A DNA stretch of 64,000 nt from Amphiscolops sp. MND2022. Lineage: Eukaryota. Position numbers and translations under genes: made by a program. The stretch is from assembly GCA_964187785.1 (NCBI GenBank), contig OZ076418.1, forward strand, positions 5,084,001 to 5,148,000, read 5' to 3'. Under the pieces are notes generated by a model, which searched no databases, was not told where the DNA came from, and saw nothing but the letters and a program-made list of their open reading frames with translations. This document shows positions 1 through 63,817 of this stretch, one piece after another; position 1 is the first letter of the stretch; each line of letters opens with the position of its first letter.

Positions 1-1
1 T

Positions 2-2635
2 GGAGGATGAACGAAAGTATTGTACGAAGGATTTTTGAGGGGATTTTGATCTTGTATATCTATCGCGTTTGTCTTCATCATCTCTTTGTTTTTTGAAACA
101 AGCAGAGATAGAGTGATTTGTTCTATGACAGTAGGAGCAGTATTTTTTGTAAGCGGGTTTTGTTTTGTTATTTGGGTCTCGTGGTTGTGTAAACATGATT
201 TGGTCAGTTTGTTGTTGATTTAAGGATTGAGATTGTAATTGTTTTGTAAGGTTATTAACTTCAAGAGTGAGATCATGTGTACGTATTTTGTCATTGGCGA
301 TGTCTTCAGCATCTACAAGTTTTACAAGTGTGTGAAAAGGTATTGAAGGTTCTAAAACAGTAGAAGTATGTTTAACTTGTCGTTTGTTTGCAAAATCTTT
401 AAGATTTTTGGGTAGTCCTTTTGTAAAAATTTCATTGCATTTGAGATTTATAGTTGATGCGTTCTCATTGCACCATCCTTTTTCAACAAGTTGTTGAACT
501 CTAAGGGCAAAATGACGAACAGTTTCGTTGTCCTTCTTTGTTAAACTAAGAGCTTCAACTTGTGCATAATAAGCGTTTTTTTGTGATGAAAATTGTTTTT
601 TGAAAGCTTGTACAAAAGCGTGCCAATCTTGTTTGTAAGTGTCATTCAATCGGATATACCAACTGAGGGCAGTTCCAGTGAGTGAGCATTGTATAAAAGC
701 CATTCGGCGAGCATGCCAAAATTTGTATTCATGAGTAGTATGAGGTTGTAAACCTAGTGAAAATGTAACGCGGGCCTCAATATGTTGTAAGTATTCTTCT
801 GGTGTATAATTATGGTCTAAACCATCAAAAGGTTTAATGGGTTCTGAAATTGATGTAGCAGAATTAATATAGGTAGGTGTATTAATGGTAGATGGAGGTA
901 TTGTATTTGGAGGTATAGTGTGTAAAGTGGAAGGGTTGGAAGAAGTAGGTGGAATATTTAGGACATTGACTTGAGGTTGTATTGGAATCGAGTGTATATG
1001 TGGAGGTGGATGTGTAATAGTTGAAGGAGGATGAGTTTGATGATGAGTATTAGAGTGTAATACATTTAAGTTTGTTTGTGTATTATTTGTGTTAAGTTGT
1101 GATTGTATATTGGTACTGGTGAGGTTGTACATAAGTGGGTTATTCTGAATTAATGGTAAAGGAGGTCTTGATAATGTACTAGAAGTTGTAACGTTTGATA
1201 TAGGGTTAGTATGTAGAGTGTTAATAGTTAATGTAGGAGGATTATTGTATTGTACGGGTATTTGAGCAGGAATATATGGTATTGTTTGAGGTGATTGTAT
1301 TGGGGGAGTGGTTGTTTGAAATTGGGTTTCGTTTAAGGGAGGTTGTTGAGTAAAAAAGGTGTTAGATGATCCTTGTTGTGGTGAGTTGTGTGGGGTACTA
1401 TGAGTGGAGTGAATAGATGGAGGAGGTGGTGGATCATAGTTTCGTGTTGTTGTCTGGTGTATTGAAGATGATTGTGTTTCAGTGTCGTTAGTCATAGAGA
1501 TAGTAGAAGGGTTTTCTTGATTGAAAAGATGAGTGTTAGTTTCTGTGATATTTCGAGTAGGTACTTGAAGAGCATTGGAGTCCGTAGTTGTACTAGAAGT
1601 ATTCGGTGGATTTGTAATTGTGTCTTGTACTGATTCTGTTGGATCATGTGTTATTTGAGATGTATGTCTTGGAGTTGTTGGTTGATGTTGAATTACGTTT
1701 TCATCAGTAATGTTGTGGTCTTGTGTTGAGTGCGTATAGTGTGGATTATCAGAAATTTCAGAAGATTGATTTTCTTCTTCCATTGTGTTGTTTTGAAATA
1801 GGTTTGTATAAGGTCGGCTATCTGAAGTTTCAGATTGTTCTATAAGAAAATCGGTATTAAGTTCTATAGCTTCAATATGAGATGGATGGAGTGTAGTGAA
1901 GTTTTTGTAATAAGGATGTTTGGATTTGTTTTGAATGATAAATGGTAAAAGTTCAGTTTTATTTAGTATTTGAGGAAAATGTATGTATGCATTCTGGTCT
2001 TTTGGTTCCCATATCAGTTGATAATTAAATCTGAAGAATTTCAGAAGAAAGTGAGAGAAAACTTTAATTTGTGGTATTGTATCATCATCTAGTGTAATAT
2101 TTTTGAAGAATTTGTATTGAAAAGTTGTTACTTGTAAAATATCTTGTTGAAGCCAATAGTGAGGGTTGTTGTGGCGTATTATTTTTGTATCTAAATCTGG
2201 GACTTCAAAAAGGTCTACCTTTTCTTTCAATTCTTCGAGAAGAGATGGTCTGTATATAGGTGTGTCTAAATTTTCATTATGTTCAATAAGTTGGTTAATG
2301 TAGCTTATGAAAATATTTTGAATTGGTAAAATTAAGTTTCGAGGATGGATAGTTCTATAGAAGGTTCCATTGTTAATACCTGGTATTGGATTGAAAATGA
2401 CTTGGAAGGGTTGTTGTGATGGTGTGATTTCCAATGTTTTGTATCTAAAGTAATAAAGGTATGCATCTAAGTGTTCTCGAAGCAATGGTATTGTATGAAT
2501 AGAATGTGCTTCTGTTTCAAATGGAAGTGGATTGGTGTACTGATAGATTAGGTTATGTAAAAAAGGTGTTATATCATGGGTGGTTGAGCGAAAAGATCTT
2601 TGTTGTGAAGAAAATGTGAATGGATTTGGAAGCAT
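2..2635 (-). CDS. gag: Gag polyprotein, >878 aa, open off the left edge
   Basis: Manual translation from ATG 2635 (MLPNPFTFSSQQ...) has no stop to position 1. Capsid-like IKPFDGLDHNYTPEEYL...LTGTALSWYIRL...WHAFVQAFKKQF...ETVRHFALRVQQL from about 840; zinc knuckle CSYCHRTNHSISAC (CX2CX4HX4C) at 139-98. Confidence 0.92.
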   Translation of the reverse strand, partial: MLPNPFTFSSQQRSFRSTTHDITPFLHNLIYQYTNPLPFETEAHSIHTIPLLREHLDAYLYYFRYKTLEITPSQQPFQVIFNPIPGINNGTFYRTIHPRNLILPIQNIFISYINQLIEHNENLDTPIYRPSLLEELKEKVDLFEVPDLDTKIIRHNNPHYWLQQDILQVTTFQYKFFKNITLDDDTIPQIKVFSHFLLKFFRFNYQLIWEPKDQNAYIHFPQILNKTELLPFIIQNKSKHPYYKNFTTLHPSHIEAIELNTDFLIEQSETSDSRPYTNLFQNNTMEEENQSSEISDNPHYTHSTQDHNITDENVIQHQPTTPRHTSQITHDPTESVQDTITNPPNTSSTTTDSNALQVPTRNITETNTHLFNQENPSTISMTNDTETQSSSIHQTTTRNYDPPPPPSIHSTHSTPHNSPQQGSSNTFFTQQPPLNETQFQTTTPPIQSPQTIPYIPAQIPVQYNNPPTLTINTLHTNPISNVTTSSTLSRPPLPLIQNNPLMYNLTSTNIQSQLNTNNTQTNLNVLHSNTHHQTHPPSTITHPPPHIHSIPIQPQVNVLNIPPTSSNPSTLHTIPPNTIPPSTINTPTYINSATSISEPIKPFDGLDHNYTPEEYLQHIEARVTFSLGLQPHTTHEYKFWHARRMAFIQCSLTGTALSWYIRLNDTYKQDWHAFVQAFKKQFSSQKNAYYAQVEALSLTKKDNETVRHFALRVQQLVEKGWCNENASTINLKCNEIFTKGLPKNLKDFANKRQVKHTSTVLEPSIPFHTLVKLVDAEDIANDKIRTHDLTLEVNNLTKQLQSQSLNQQQTDQIMFTQPRDPNNKTKPAYKKYCSYCHRTNHSISACFKKQRDDEDKRDRYTRSKSPQKSFVQYFRSSS

Positions 2636-2647
2636 TATGTAATTTCG

Positions 2648-2884
2648 TTATAAATCATAGTAGAAATTGTTTACTATAGGAAATAGATATTGGGTGAAAA
2701 TGTGTTTTGTGTTAAAATTAATGGGGTATGGAAGTATTATATCTACGAATGCTATTTGTAGGAAAACAGTAATTAGAGTTAAAGGTAAGAGCAGGAGTTT
2801 ATTGGATGTCAGTGATAATAAGGTACAAATTGTGTAATATATTCCCAAAATGCCAAAAAGAGGAAGTATTATAGCTTGTATCAT
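2648..2884 (-). CDS. Small hydrophobic ORF (78 aa, about 2 predicted TM helices) in the retroelement leader
   Basis: ORF track MIQAIILPLFGILGIYYTICTLLSL...LLLLPLTLITVFLQIAFVDIIL; stops 13 nt before the gag ATG; G residues mostly at codon position 1 on an otherwise G-poor strand. Confidence 0.45.
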   Translation of the reverse strand: MIQAIILPLFGILGIYYTICTLLSLTSNKLLLLPLTLITVFLQIAFVDIILPYPINFNTKHIFTQYLFPIVNNFYYDL

Positions 2885-2991
2885 AGAAATTAAGAGTAGT
2901 TTAAGAGTTATATAGGGTAATAATTCTTGAGAGTTATATAAAGTTTGGGTTAATATTTTGTTATTCTATTGTAAAATATTAATGTAAAATA

Positions 2992-3111
2992 TTATAATCT
3001 TGGTATAAAAGGGACTAAAAATCTGTCAAAGAAAAGTGCAATACCAGCAAGGATACCAAGAGAGAACCAAAGAAGAATTAAAAAGTGTACTATTTTATTA
3101 GCTGAAGGCAT
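2992..3111 (-). CDS. Small hydrophobic ORF (39 aa, single TM-like) in the retroelement leader
   Basis: Manual translation MPSANKIVHFLILLWFSLGILAGIALFFDRFLVPFIPRL*; below the ORF-track cutoff. Confidence 0.4.
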   Translation of the reverse strand: MPSANKIVHFLILLWFSLGILAGIALFFDRFLVPFIPRL

Positions 3112-3501
3112 TAACAAAAGAAATAATGTACTATAGTTATATGAAATTTTTGATATGTTGTACTAAAAGGTTATACTGAAATTTTGTACTGAGGGTTAAT
3201 TATAGAGTTCTAGAAGTGAAATGTGTACTATTGAAAGTTCTAAATGTGGAATGTGTATTATTGGTGGAATGTGTATTATTGATCCGCGGCAGTGTTTAAG
3301 AAAGGAGAAAATTTATAGTGTATTAGAAAGTTAGAGAAAAAGATTGTTATGAGTATTGTAAGAGTAGAAAGGAGGAAAGATGTTATTTTATGAGATTATA
3401 GAAAATGTTATGTTTTGTGCCAACTCTGAGAGGAGTTGATCCAAGCGGCTAGAACCAGAGTATTTGACTAGCAGGAATCGCCGGATAGCACGATTGAAAA
3501 A

Positions 3502-3711
3502 CCAACACGAATCGCACGTCTGCGGTTGGAACGGAAATGAAAGAGAAACCAACACGAAATCACTTTGTAGTGGTTGGAACGAAAAATTTACTGACAGGAA
3601 TTACGTGTGAACGTAGTCAGAACCAAAATATTTTGCTGACAGGAATTACGATAGTACGCAGTCAGAACCGAAAAGTTGTAACTGACAGGAATTACGAAAA
3701 GACGTAGTCAG
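3502..3711 (-). other. Array of five bulged RNA stem-loops (about 45-nt period) in the retroelement leader
   Basis: Units at 3502, 3549, 3591, 3636 and 3682. Each has a 5-bp outer stem (CCAAC/GTTGG or CTGAC/GTCAG), a 4-bp inner stem, a variable loop and a 3' bulge ATTC(G/C)T on the minus strand (7-nt ATTTCGT in the 3549 unit); compensatory changes between units. Confidence 0.8.
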
Positions 3712-3858
3712 AACCATGAGAGAAGTTAGTATCGATATACAATAGAAAGAGGAGGTGAAACAGTGTGTCGAACGAAGAAATAGCGTATGAGAAAGTTAAG
3801 AAATTGTGTACAAGAAGAATGAAGTTGAGGTATGAGAGGAAGAGAGAAGAGAATTTTC

Positions 3859-3870
3859 GTGGTCGCACCA
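3859..3870 (-). promoter_or_regulatory. Putative primer-binding site TGGTGCGACCAC
   Basis: On minus: ...ACAGCTCA-AT-TGGTGCGACC; TGG two nt after a CA dinucleotide is the usual LTR/PBS junction. Confidence 0.6.
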
Positions 3871-3872
3871 AT

Positions 3873-4287
3873 TGAGCTGTTTAAGACTTGTCTTATGTTA
3901 GATGTTATTTCATTTAAGAAGTACATAAGAAGTTCTTTTCTAAGTCTTAACAGAATACCGTCTAGCTAGCTATACTTTCACTGAACTGAGGAGTACTACT
4001 TAGACTGAGATCTCAGAATTACTTTCTCTTCAAGATGAGAGTACTGGTTGATTACAACATTCGAGTTACTCTGATTATACAGAATTAGTTAGTACATCAA
4101 TCAATAATAAGATTAAATAGACTTCAAATCATTATAGGATGAAGTTTGGAGGGATTACATTTATAATGAAATATTGGCATTTCGATAATGAAGTATTAAC
4201 TTCTGATTAGAATGACATCTGTCATGCTATTAGGTCACGAAGTTTAGCAAATATAAAATTCTTGATGTCATGCATCATGACGTCACA
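3873..4287 (-). repeat. Putative 5' LTR (about 415 bp)
   Basis: Minus strand starts TGTGACGTCA at 4287 and ends GCTCA at 3873 next to the PBS; TATAAA at 4165-4160; the sequence switches to a different repeat family at 4288. No partner LTR in the window to confirm. Confidence 0.6.
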
Positions 4288-5365
4288 CCACCCAAGGCGC
4301 CCAGTCCGGCAAATAAGGCCAAGGCAAATTCAGTGCAAACCCTTTTCAAGGTAACCTACAAAATCGGACGTGACTACAGAGTCCCCCCTTTCGATTTTTC
4401 GATTTTTTTTCGGCACTGTGCGACTTTTTTTCGAAAATTTTTTTGTCTCCAAAGGGTCCCCCTTTCATTTTGTACTTTTTTAACGTAATCTACAAAACCG
4501 TCCGAGGCTAAAGGGTCCCCCCTTTTGATTTTTTTCTGCACTGTGCGACATTTTCCTTTAAAAAATTTTTTTTCGAAAATTTCAAGTTTTTTTCGAAAAA
4601 AATGTTTTGCGCTTTTTGAGCCTTAGATATAGCGCCGACTTTAGACGTTCTCGTCTTGTTTCTTCAGACTACAATCCTCACACTGATCGGTCCACTTTTC
4701 TTACAATTCTTACAATCTTAAAATCTTACAATTCTTACTTAGCAAATTCAAAATACTTGCGAAGTAGTATTTTTACATCATCTTAGAAACTCAAAGGGAC
4801 CAAAGGGTACGCCCTCCTTAGAGTATTTTCGGCTCTGTGAGACTTTTTTTTCGAAAAAATTTTCAATGTCTTAAAAGGGTCCCCCCTTCGAGTTTTCTCA
4901 TATTTTGCAACTGAATGTATGTTAATCAATCCCAAAGGGTGTCCCCCCTTCTACATTTTTCGGCACTATGCGACTTTTTTTGAAATTTTTTTTCAAAAAT
5001 TACAAGTTTTTTTCCAAAAAAATGTTTTGCGCTTTTTGAGCCTTAGATATGGCGCCGACTTTAGACGTTCTCGTCTTGTTTTTTCTTCAGACTACAATCC
5101 TCACACTGATCGGTCCACTTTTTAGAAACAATCCTGAAACCACCTACAACTAAGGCCAAGTCCGGCCAAGGCAAACTTATTCCAAAGGGTCGCCCTTTCA
5201 TTTTTTACTTTTCAAGGTAACCTACAAACCCTTTGGATTTTTTTCGGCACTATGCGACATTTTTTGAAAGAAAAAATTCAGAAATTTCAAGTTTTTTCCA
5301 AAAAAAAGGTTTTGCGCTTTTTGAGCCTTAGATATAGCGCGGACTTCAGACGTTCTCGTCTTGTT
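4288..5365 (+). mobile_element. Three tandem 3' portions of HINE/Helentron-like family A
   Basis: Terminus GCG(C/G)(C/G)GACT..AGACGTTCTCGTCTTGTT recurs at about 4661, 5081 and 5365; internal GGGTCCCCC and CGGCACT(G/A)TGCGAC motifs. Confidence 0.75.
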
Positions 5366-40475: not shown

Positions 40476-41760
40476 CAGGGCTGTCATGTTATTTACATAG
40501 TGTTATTAACAAGCCTTTAATTTACATGTTATTTACATGAATGTTTTGAAATTAACATCCGATTTTAACAGTTTTTTTTGGATTTTCATCATTCGGTGTT
40601 ATTGTATTTTTTCAGATCACTGAAATGCCTCCAGCGAAAAAGCCGGTGTGGGATAAATTTCTTTCTGTTACTGTTAATGGTGTTAAAAAAGGGAAATGCA
40701 AGGCTTGCAATACGGAAATTGTGAATAATCCTGTTAGACTGGAAGCGCATCTGAAGAAATGCGCAGCAAAACCTGACGATGAAGATGTTCAGCAAGTAGA
40801 CGGACCTGGGCCCTCTAAGGTCTTGAAGCAGACTACTATGGACATTTGCATATCAAAATCCAAACAACATGAAATGGATCTTTCTCTAGTGCGCTATTTT
40901 GTCGCCACCAATACACCTTTCAATGCCGCCGCGAACAAAAATTTTAAAGATTTTGTGCAGAAAATGAAGCCCGGAGCTGTTATCCCTGATCGCCGAAGAC
41001 TAGCGGGTGAACTTTTAGACGAAGTTTACGAGCAAGAAAAAGAGAAAGTCAAGGTAAAAGTCAGGGGCATGAATGCTACGCTTGCCATCGATGGGTGGTC
41101 CACCCTCACAAATGAGCCCGTCCTTGGAGTATGTTTTATTTGCCAAGGGGTGCCCTATTTAGTTACTACCATGGTTACAACTGGCGAATCGCATACAGCA
41201 GATTATTTAGAGCGTATAGTCCGTGAGCAGTTAGCCTTTGTAGAATCGGAATTTTCAGTTAAAATTTGCAGTGTAGCTACTGACAATGCAGCCAATATGT
41301 CGTCAATGAGGAACCGAACTGCGTCTGCCGTTGACTACATCAAGAATTTTGGTGGAACAGAATTGATGGAAGACCTGGTGAAGTATATGGGGAAGGTACA
41401 GCCATATAATGATTCTCTGTTTGGCGATGACTACAAAAATGTCTCACCAGATGCCTGGTGGAAAGGTGGCATAAAATTTGGATTTTCTGCGAAGTTGGTT
41501 CAAATCGCCTGCTCTATTGTCACAGCCGTAGCCTCAAGTGCAGGACTCGAGCGCTACTTTTCAACCCTAGGCTTGACATATGGAACGCTACGCAGCTCTC
41601 TTGGAGTTGAAAAAGCGGGAAAAATGGCCTTTTTGTTCAAGCAGTTGAACAAAGACTAAGATTTTGATTTTTACAATTTTACTGTTATTTACATCTACTT
41701 TTGTGTAATTTACATGTTAACATGTTAATATCGTTTTTAACTAACAATATGACAGCCCTG
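40476..41760 (+). mobile_element. Internally deleted hAT transposon (1285 bp) in intron 3
   Basis: 12-bp TIR CAGGGCTGTCAT; perfect 8-bp TSD ATCAGAAG (40468-40475, 41761-41768); TTTACAT subterminal repeats at both ends. Confidence 0.95.
40625..41659 (+). CDS. 344-aa hAT mini-transposase: BED finger, DDE residues and hATC dimerization region, insertion domain missing
   Basis: VWDKF...CKAC...HLKKC; LAIDGWS; ATDNAANM; PDAWWK...SSAGLERYFS; uninterrupted ORF. Confidence 0.85.
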   Translation: MPPAKKPVWDKFLSVTVNGVKKGKCKACNTEIVNNPVRLEAHLKKCAAKPDDEDVQQVDGPGPSKVLKQTTMDICISKSKQHEMDLSLVRYFVATNTPFNAAANKNFKDFVQKMKPGAVIPDRRRLAGELLDEVYEQEKEKVKVKVRGMNATLAIDGWSTLTNEPVLGVCFICQGVPYLVTTMVTTGESHTADYLERIVREQLAFVESEFSVKICSVATDNAANMSSMRNRTASAVDYIKNFGGTELMEDLVKYMGKVQPYNDSLFGDDYKNVSPDAWWKGGIKFGFSAKLVQIACSIVTAVASSAGLERYFSTLGLTYGTLRSSLGVEKAGKMAFLFKQLNKD

Positions 41761-62326: not shown

Positions 62327-63817
62327 TTGAATGAGCTTCCACTAGCTATGGAGGTGACCGATGACTCAGATTTGGACATACCACTCAAGGAATCTGCGAG
62401 CAACAAGGCTAACAGAGCGTTTTATGGGCTGAAACTTGGTGAGCAAACAGCAACAGTTACTAGTATTTCATCTTCTGATTCAAGCTATGACAGCGATAAA
62501 GAGAACATTGGGAAGATTTAGTAAACAGATCTCAAGAAGAAAGTGAAGACGACCTCATTCTGCCGAATACCAAGGAACTCAGGTGCCGCAATCGAACGGA
62601 TGCTTTTGACATTCCAGCTGCCTCTGAATATAGAGAAGTGGTTTCGAAAATACGAAAACATTTCGAATGCCTTTCAGATTATCTGACAAGCGACAAGCGA
62701 ATTCCTAGCAAATATTTGCTACAATACAAACCTGTATGCACGACAGCAATCCATCAATGACCCATTTAACCTTGATTCGAAAGAACTTTTAGTTTTCATT
62801 AGAGTTTCAAAATGGACGTCTCTGATCAAATTACCGCCAATGCATATGTATTGGGCGAAAGATACGCGAATACCGCATGTCGCTGACTTTTTGACAAGAA
62901 ATCGATATCAGCAGATCGGAAGTAAATTGCACTTTGCGGATAACGAAAAAAAGACAGATCACAGTCTGAAGGACTTCAAATTCGCAATGATTGGGGAGCA
63001 TTCCAATGACGTGTGTTCAATAATTGAAAAAGACCCTTTCTTATCAATAGACGAACAGATCATACCTTATAAAGAAATAAAATCGTCACTACGGCAATAC
63101 CTACCGAAGAAATCGAAGAAATGGGGCGATAAAGTTTTCGCGCTTTGTGAACAACAATGTGAGGTCAATGGCATCCGACTTGCTGCTGTGTTATGGCATG
63201 ATAACGCGCAGGTTTCATTGCTCAGCTCTTTCGTTGGTGGCCAAATGGTTTATCAGCAACAAAGGTATGACAGGGGAAAGAAACAAAAAATTGTGGACTG
63301 CCCAGTGATTGTAATGGAATACAATAAACATATGGGTTATGTTGATAAATTCAACAGATACATTGCACTTTACCGCTCTGGACAACACTGTGTAACTCGA
63401 CATTACTTGAGATTTTTTCCATTTCATCGATGCGTTCTTCATCAATAGCGGGGTCCTATATAGAAGAGAAGCCGAGGACTCCCAACTTCCGAAAAAAGAC
63501 ACTTTGAGCTTATTTGACTTCTGTTCACGCTTGTGTTCGTGTCTTACAAGTATGACAGGTGATCCTGTTACACCAAGAGGGAGTCTACGAAAAAAAGCGA
63601 CTGAGATGGAAACACCTGTTCGGGTGGCGTCACCATTAATACTGCGAGCAATGCAATCAAGCAACGGTGGTCACTGGCACCTGACAACATCACAGACAAC
63701 GATGCAAGTTACCAGGTTGCAATGCCAAGAGCAGTTTGGTGCAAAAAATGCCAGCGGCACCTCTGTGTAAACTCTCACCGAAACTGTTTTCAGTCATTTC
63801 ATTATCAAAACTTTTGA
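62327..63817 (+). pseudogene. piggyBac (PGBD-type) transposase, frameshifted and internally deleted
   Basis: Acidic N-terminus; TNLYA..Q; KLP..MYW; LSIDEQIIPYK; YLPKKSKKWGDK; WHDN; EYNKHMGYVD; C-terminal RCKLPGC...CKKCQRHLC...NCFQSFH*. The DNYF region is absent between KVFALCE and QQCEVNG. Confidence 0.9.

Follow-up and report, generated by a model that had tools for sequence, protein, structure and literature searches.

The window, i.e., the whole 64,000-nt stretch of DNA analysed here, opens inside an env-carrying Ty3/gypsy LTR retrotransposon of ~17.8 kb, which lies on the minus strand and is present in thousands of copies in its host genome (1.07 Gb, animal by gene content). In the direction in which the element is read, its features within the window are as follows:

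3873..4287, minus strand: 5′ LTR of 415 bp (TG...CA); the identical 3′ LTR lies ~17.4 kb downstream, outside the window
3858..3870, minus strand: PBS, 13 nt complementary to the 3′ end of genomic tRNA-Val(TAC) plus CCA
3682..3715, minus strand: unit 1 (type A), with GGUU flank, outer stem CUGAC/GUCAG, inner stem UACG/CGUA, and bulge AUUCCU
3636..3669, minus strand: unit 2 (type A), with a sense-strand G-U pair within the inner stem
3591..3624, minus strand: unit 3 (type A)
3549..3581, minus strand: unit 4 (type B), with CGUU flank, outer stem CCAAC/GUUGG, inner stem CACU/AGUG, and a 7-nt bulge; the weakest predicted fold
3502..3533, minus strand: unit 5 (type B), capped by a conserved GACG tetraloop (3517-3520) with an A-U closing pair
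3445..3481, minus strand: unit 6, circularly permuted, reading GCG AUUCCU GCUAG (bulge strand first), a linker, and GGUU CUAGC CGC
3417..3491, minus strand: three-way junction made of a GUGC/GCAC stem, an AUCC/GGAU arm with unit 6, and a CAAC/GUUG hairpin
2992..3111, minus strand: small hydrophobic ORF 1, 39 aa, between the array and gag
2648..2884, minus strand: small hydrophobic ORF 2, 78 aa, immediately upstream of gag
1..2635, minus strand: start of Gag-Pol, a single ORF of 2,691 aa that continues beyond the window

This copy is young, as its LTRs are identical and a 4-bp target duplication (CCAC) is present. A cluster of five tRNA-Val genes (L213, G000:C2:56572494-56575514) includes a TAC gene, at 1500-1574 of that locus, which matches the PBS. 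Between the PBS and the hairpins, the stretch GTTCGACAC (3765-3773, minus strand) is kept at a constant spacing to the PBS in families F1, F1b, F1d, and F2, and is GTTCGA in F3; we take it to resemble a tRNA T-loop or a Pol III B box.

Gag-Pol comprises, in order, an uncharacterised N-terminal domain, capsid, a CCHC knuckle, an RS-rich region, PR, RT, RH, and IN; the Pfam matches follow the gypsy domain order, that to PR being weak (E 0.24). Four ORFs come after Gag-Pol; in all, the element has six ORFs besides gag-pol, env included. The env-like ORF (909 aa) matches the viral fusion glycoprotein PF24664 (E 8.5e-23); for the three accessory ORFs (420, 485, and 192 aa stop-to-stop; L031 568-4498, the L031/L032 junction, and L032 8037-8615, minus strand) there is no Pfam match. 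The first two accessory ORFs are common to families F1–F4 (35–75%). The last is lineage-specific, with 50–63% within the group of families sharing the motif described below, and is barely or not alignable to F3 and F4 (best E 0.009). Both small hydrophobic ORFs are retained in F1b and F2 and have, by eye, apparent counterparts in F3 and F4. The Gag N-terminal domain (1796-2635, minus strand; ~270 aa) gave the one confident structural model of five (pLDDT 81.5, pTM 0.84); comparison with solved folds gave no clear match (best Z 3.5, rmsd 4.1, 88 aligned). A 449-aa accessory ORF has a poor predicted fold (pLDDT 41.7) and 700 unnamed profile matches, and solved relatives were found for neither protein. 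Elsewhere in the window, scattered exon-like ORFs at 38254-61252 (plus strand) have, by eye, the look of an immunoglobulin/fibronectin-type cell-adhesion gene, and ORFs at 40556-41659 and 62687-63448 look DNA-transposon-like.

The hairpins lie ~150–450 nt downstream of the PBS and upstream of all long ORFs. The original prediction described five bulged hairpins on the sense strand, spaced 42–47 nt, one of them with a UGCG/CGUA inner stem containing a G-U wobble. Coordinates and a generic scan recover the units in exactly this form, the wobble included, with stems at 3682-3711, 3636-3665, 3591-3620, 3549-3577, and 3502-3529 (minus strand) and end-to-end spacings of 46, 45, 42, and 47 nt. The scanner, set to a 5-bp outer stem, a 4-bp inner stem, and a 3′ bulge of 5–8 nt, found these five units and no other match over 4,400 nt of the window; its five matches in 3481-3730 compare with at most two in 500 dinucleotide shuffles, 485 of which gave none. 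Each module consists of two helices (5 and 3–4 bp) connected across a 3′ bulge of fixed letters, and the spacers are U-rich. The predicted count of five holds for units of this form, but the array extends further, into the permuted sixth unit at 3445-3481. Similarly, the hairpin predicted at 3421-3438 is present, not as a structure standing alone but as one arm of the junction at 3417-3491.

Thermodynamic prediction does not single the region out. Whole-region folding (z = −1.07 sense, −0.85 antisense) is non-significant on either strand and was dropped as structural evidence; both strands fold at similar energies. Single units with their flanks have z of −0.5 to −1.8 and modest energies of −5.2 to −7.5 kcal/mol each. 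Each isolated unit is predicted to fold in the proposed form. In full-leader predictions, the 3′ arm of one unit often pairs with the 5′ arm of the next, competing with the outer stems, the probabilities of which are 0.86, 0.85, 0.91, 0.08, and 0.14 at a 60-nt span and at most 0.10 at a 400-nt span. Since the energies are ordinary and cross-unit pairing competes, the case for structure rests on comparison, not energy.

For this comparison, related families of the same genome were found by protein searches, and their leaders were then retrieved. A structure-blind parser, with the window units as templates and at most 6 mismatches, yielded 551 units from 104 loci; two duplicate loci, two neighbour stretches, and six gag-region loci were left out of this set. 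Stem cells of these units comprise 4,179 Watson-Crick pairs, 124 G-U pairs, 31 A-C, and 74 other mismatches; it should be noted that the 104 loci share descent, so that these and the following counts represent non-independent events. Double-sided change is seen in at least 5 loci at 7 of the 8 stem pairs, and no pair state other than Watson-Crick and G-U exceeds 8 loci. Thus, outer pair 1 changes from C-G to G-C in 23 loci, outer pair 2 alternates between C-G and U-A, outer pair 3 between A-U and G-C, and outer pair 4 changes from A-U to C-G in 5 loci, outer pair 5 being fixed. Analogously, inner pair 1 alternates between C-G and U-A, and inner pair 3 changes from C-G to A-U in 50 loci. Some of the double-sided swaps trace to a single split between types A and B; the GCAAC, CCACC, CUAAC, CAA/UUG, and CAC/CGC variants are separate events. 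In 20 real units, hand-picked to represent the common types, 99.5% of cells pair, vs 28–44% with the partners slid. RNAalifold, the check suggested with the original prediction, predicted the proposed fold from the units unaided, with 8 of 9 pairs compensated. A hammerhead reading of CUGAC was ruled out on inspection, as CCAAC replaces CUGAC with compensation.

Inner pair 2 bears on the strand. Its states are A-U and G-C, with G-U in 80 loci vs A-C in 3. Private mutations outside this pair are symmetric (32 G-U vs 31 A-C locus-states); because such mutations give the two about equally, the fixed G-U identifies the sense RNA strand. An independent U-G is present in 9 of 14 loci of family F4.

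Outside the stems, unpaired letters of the flank and bulge are at least 97% constant at 7 positions, while there are ~150 distinct loop sequences, the spacing between the arms varies, and loops and 3′ flanks vary freely; the variability of the loops, also predicted, is true of most units and does not extend to the GACG loop of unit 5. In ten diverged loci the unit cores are 92–96% like a window unit, while the leader adjoining the array no longer aligns. Leaders hold 3–9 units (5 or 6 in 91 of the 104 loci), the number and order of which vary over 16 architectures. A genome-wide search with the type A pattern gave 4,609 matches, vs 2 for the reversed control; a first look across the genome gave 2,138 candidates for the array region, 40 of which were scored. 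Taken together, the comparison shows the array to be a selected, family-specific RNA structure, present in several copies on the sense strand. Two lines of evidence, the covariation between subfamilies and the arrangement of PBS and LTR, support the proposal of structure conserved over sequence in the sense strand of a retroelement leader.

Unit 6 provides a different kind of evidence. Its two strands are in reverse order and form a stem of its own, CUAGC/GCUAG, and it was parsed in 64 loci. The recurrence of this permuted copy indicates that the module is a two-strand structure rather than a linear DNA site. The predicted probability of the unit 6 stem is 0.34 in the window copy, and in two sister copies 0.55 (locus L064) and 0.94 (locus L077). 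Two adjacent units, through their facing halves, likely gave rise to unit 6, which resembles their spacers in sequence; a search for an unpermuted unit with the CUAGC stem gave 0 matches.

The flank and bulge may also pair with each other. Bulge position 5 covaries with the flank position that lies four bases ahead of the outer stem, the flank-bulge pair being C-G in 104 loci and G-C in 100; an invariant G-C adjoins this pair, and the candidate pairs are GG:CC vs CG:CG. Since the permuted unit combines GG:CC with a type B-like inner pair, the flank-bulge covariation is separable from the stems. On sequence grounds, 5′ flank and bulge likely form a 2-bp pseudoknot, the swap amounting to one deep evolutionary split only. 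Genome-wide pattern searches found no second, multi-copy independent flank-bulge swap: type A stems gave three double changes, one of them complementary, and type B stems 22 matches, about half of which are real units. Several complementary type B changes would be explicable by CpG decay, and one G-C swap is confined to a single decayed copy.

The loop of the last unit is the one apical feature that is kept. Across five subfamilies, 91 of 104 loci have A-GACG-U there, vs 2 of 442 other units. The latter figure also means that a second, adjacent GACG hairpin was not found. Nor is the loop universal in the clade, since GACG hairpins are absent from the sister-family leaders (F3, 0 of 25; F4, 0 of 14).

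These sister families, F3 and F4, share ~60% and 57% overall Pol identity, respectively, together with the PBS core and gene layout. Families with unlike motifs have closely similar capsid cores (78% and 66%), a point against the packaging reading discussed below. Both have arrays at the same leader position made of different motifs: 129 units in 29 of 31 loci in F3, and 61 units in 14 of 15 loci in F4. Our unit model, run over 111 kb including the sister leaders, gave 5 matches, all of them the window's own units. The F3 array (L070-L076, L097-L108, L183-L194) consists of ~6–8 hairpins whose stems vary and whose internal loops set RUUUAUC against YGAHA; downstream of it lies the three-way junction in a compensated form. 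The F4 array (L057-L063, L109-L116) usually consists of 4–6 small three-way junctions with an outer GUAC/GUAC stem; their third arm swaps CGAC/GUCG for CAGC/GCUG, and they resemble the single junction at window positions 3417-3491. Further protein searches for subfamilies added loci and no new motif. Outside this genome, the motif occurred in 0 stretches of viral contigs and as 10 lone single matches in prokaryote genomes, which we read as chance; metagenomes yielded 2 distant RT fragments only (26–28%). In a more distant gypsy clade (P0017, P0018, P0022, P0024; ~45% RT identity), an apparent macrodomain-like insert precedes RT, as judged by eye; a search for the loci of a clade at this distance did not recover them at the thresholds set.

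As unpaired letters of flank and bulge are fixed while the stems swap, we infer a protein-docking array, and the multivalent protein-binding platform of the original prediction would be a reasonable reading. The use of three motifs by three families in one host suggests that the reader is encoded by the element, and the leader position together with the GACG loop points to genome selection and dimerisation; both features would favour dimerisation or packaging over an IRES or export. The explanation we prefer, with confidence that is evenly divided, is that the array is the family's packaging and dimerisation signal (psi). In the mechanism proposed, the 5′ flank would fold back and pair with the bulge at two positions, and on the resulting compact knot several element-encoded proteins would dock, the simplest candidate being Gag, through its CCHC/RS region or its N-terminal domain. 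The fixed GACG loop would make a C-G kissing contact joining two genomes, as in gammaretroviruses. Since sister families have different repeated motifs at the same position, a family-specific array may let each family select its own RNA. The classic packaging-signal sign, deleted non-coding copies that retain the array, is missing among the 29 closest copies.

A broader version of the psi reading, which we offer tentatively and consider doubtful as a whole, is a self/non-self identity code. Co-resident env-gypsy families would have amplified different folds at the same leader position, each read by the family's own protein; in one lineage the fold would be an undescribed pseudoknotted module that works in either strand order, and that lineage would have reached the retroviral GACG kissing loop independently. 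On this reading, identical neighbouring modules could also re-form between two genomes via strand exchange.

The explanations competing with a packaging and dimerisation signal differ in which part of the evidence they account for. A response element for an accessory protein of the element (Rev/Rex/Rec-like), serving export or stabilisation of the unspliced genome RNA, is in our judgement unlikely. Multi-site platforms for Rev-like proteins are established, the six ORFs besides gag-pol probably require subgenomic RNAs, and the lineage-specific last ORF aligns within the motif-sharing group and barely or not to F3 and F4, as a motif-specific binder would. However, fast divergence alone could explain its missing alignment, and by eye it contains no arginine-rich motif; a simple pattern search gave no strong splice-donor-like match in the LTR or leader, and the GACG loop would be left unexplained. 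Control of gag-pol translation by IRES-like entry, shunting, or re-initiation seems quite unlikely. In its favour, the leader is long and contains upstream AUGs as well as two conserved small ORFs, gag-pol beginning ~1.2 kb from the LTR, and in 95 of 104 loci the flank of the leading type A unit overlaps an AUG (3715-3717, minus strand), vs 6 of 107 type A units further along. The peptide from this AUG is nevertheless unconserved (mostly 8, 13, 18, or 23 aa), ~300 nt separate the end of the array from the first small ORF and ~780 nt from gag, and full replacement of the motif between sister families fits poorly with binding of a conserved host ribosome.

That replacement, with a separate motif in each of three families of one host, also weighs against docking of a host RNA-binding protein for germ-line or stem-cell localisation; host-bound localisation hairpins are known in retroelements. 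We consider this, or a tandem-xrRNA-like block to 5′-3′ decay, decidedly unlikely. Flaviviral xrRNAs combine a three-way junction and 5′ strand pairing with a loop-to-downstream pseudoknot, and tandem copies whose 5′ flank would pair into the junction resemble xrRNA cores. On inspection, however, no conserved loop or 3′ flank suited to a second, loop-to-downstream pseudoknot was seen in the array, its loops and 3′ flanks varying freely; the "5′ flank" of the permuted unit sits within a loop and cannot face an incoming exonuclease, and there is no Rfam match. Tandem DNA sites are known in gypsy leaders, and the similar folding energies of the two strands, as well as the duplication and loss evident in the 16 architectures, would suit either inverted repeats acting as DNA sites, in an enhancer or insulator, or tandem duplicates of neutral origin with arms matched by template switching. 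Such DNA-level or neutral readings are disfavoured and, in our view, highly improbable: stem sequences change with pairing kept, arm spacing and loops vary, fixed wobbles are sense-strand G-U against a symmetric background of private mutations, the strand order of unit 6 is reversed, and the unpaired flank and bulge letters are nearly constant.

The system could be of use beyond this element. The module is compact (35 nt), naturally varied, and present thousands of times, one form of it is a natural circular permutant, and other motifs take its place in sister families; short synthetic RNAs could thus test how a retroelement tells self RNA from the RNA of related elements. Occurrence of the GACG loop outside retroviruses would bear on whether this dimer motif is ancient or convergent.

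Among known RNAs, an Rfam search over 2600-4400 gave 5 matches with E of 3–9, all far below the gathering threshold, and a literature search, confined largely to openly accessible papers, did not find such an array described in a gypsy leader. Within LTR retrotransposons, the 5′ RNA structures of Ty1 and Ty3 (the latter of the same superfamily as our element) are likewise tied to dimerisation and packaging, but these use short palindromes and a single pseudoknot, and a repeated structural motif is not described in the accessible parts of the two sources (PMC4974528, PMC11381356). According to the accessible part of a review, the cis signals are not clearly defined, and packaging signals of LTR retrotransposons are ill-defined even in yeast (PMC4974528). 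In LTR, PBS, gag-pol, and env, the element is like the errantivirus-like, env-carrying Ty3/gypsy elements of invertebrates (PMC13524379, from the text available), and in its two small ORFs before gag like the MDG1 group with sORF1 and sORF2 (PMC11952523, likewise). Unlike these, as far as the available text goes, it reaches ~17.8 kb, contains three accessory ORFs in addition, and combines env with the small hydrophobic ORFs. The terms "UTR" and "RNA structure" have 0 occurrences in the main text of the env-gypsy survey, the supplements of which might list the element (PMC13524379).

A close parallel is with coronaviruses, where lineage-specific repetitive structural motifs (RSMs), such as the SL5 UUYCGU hairpins and the agc/guAAu packaging signal of embecoviruses, are read as multi-site packaging signals in the available portion of the source (PMC8206606). 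As in the RSMs described there, one small motif type per lineage is present in several copies in the 5′ region, and the type B bulge reads UUCGU (cf. UUYCGU; PMC8206606). Unlike the RSMs as presented in that portion, the array has its fixed letters in the 3′ bulge and 5′ flank, not in an apical hexaloop, its apical loops vary, and its host is a reverse-transcribing element; a permuted copy and flank-bulge pairing are not described for RSMs in it.

The parallel to the loop of unit 5 is found in retroviruses. GACG tetraloops act in retroviral packaging and dimers (PMC516450, in the part available). Like the packaging-region hairpins SL-C and SL-D of MoMLV, the array has a GACG tetraloop in the leader after the PBS, kept amid drift, and the dimer hairpin of Maedi-Visna virus has the same loop as unit 5 (PMC516450, PMC7599994, both from partial texts). 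Unlike the gammaretroviral pair, the loop here is single, closes a short 4-bp helix in a bulged module, and belongs to a Ty3/gypsy host; a motif like that of the array around the GACG loop is not described for gammaretroviruses or Maedi-Visna virus in these texts. The likeness is most likely convergent, the kissing itself being a prediction. As judged from its sequence, the array would be a variation on the theme of multi-copy packaging signals, with a circular permutant, a likely pseudoknot, motif replacement, and the GACG loop as its unusual extras. By analogy, its pattern of function would be that of coronavirus RSMs, and it shares its loop with gammaretroviral dimer hairpins, but it lacks defining features of both.
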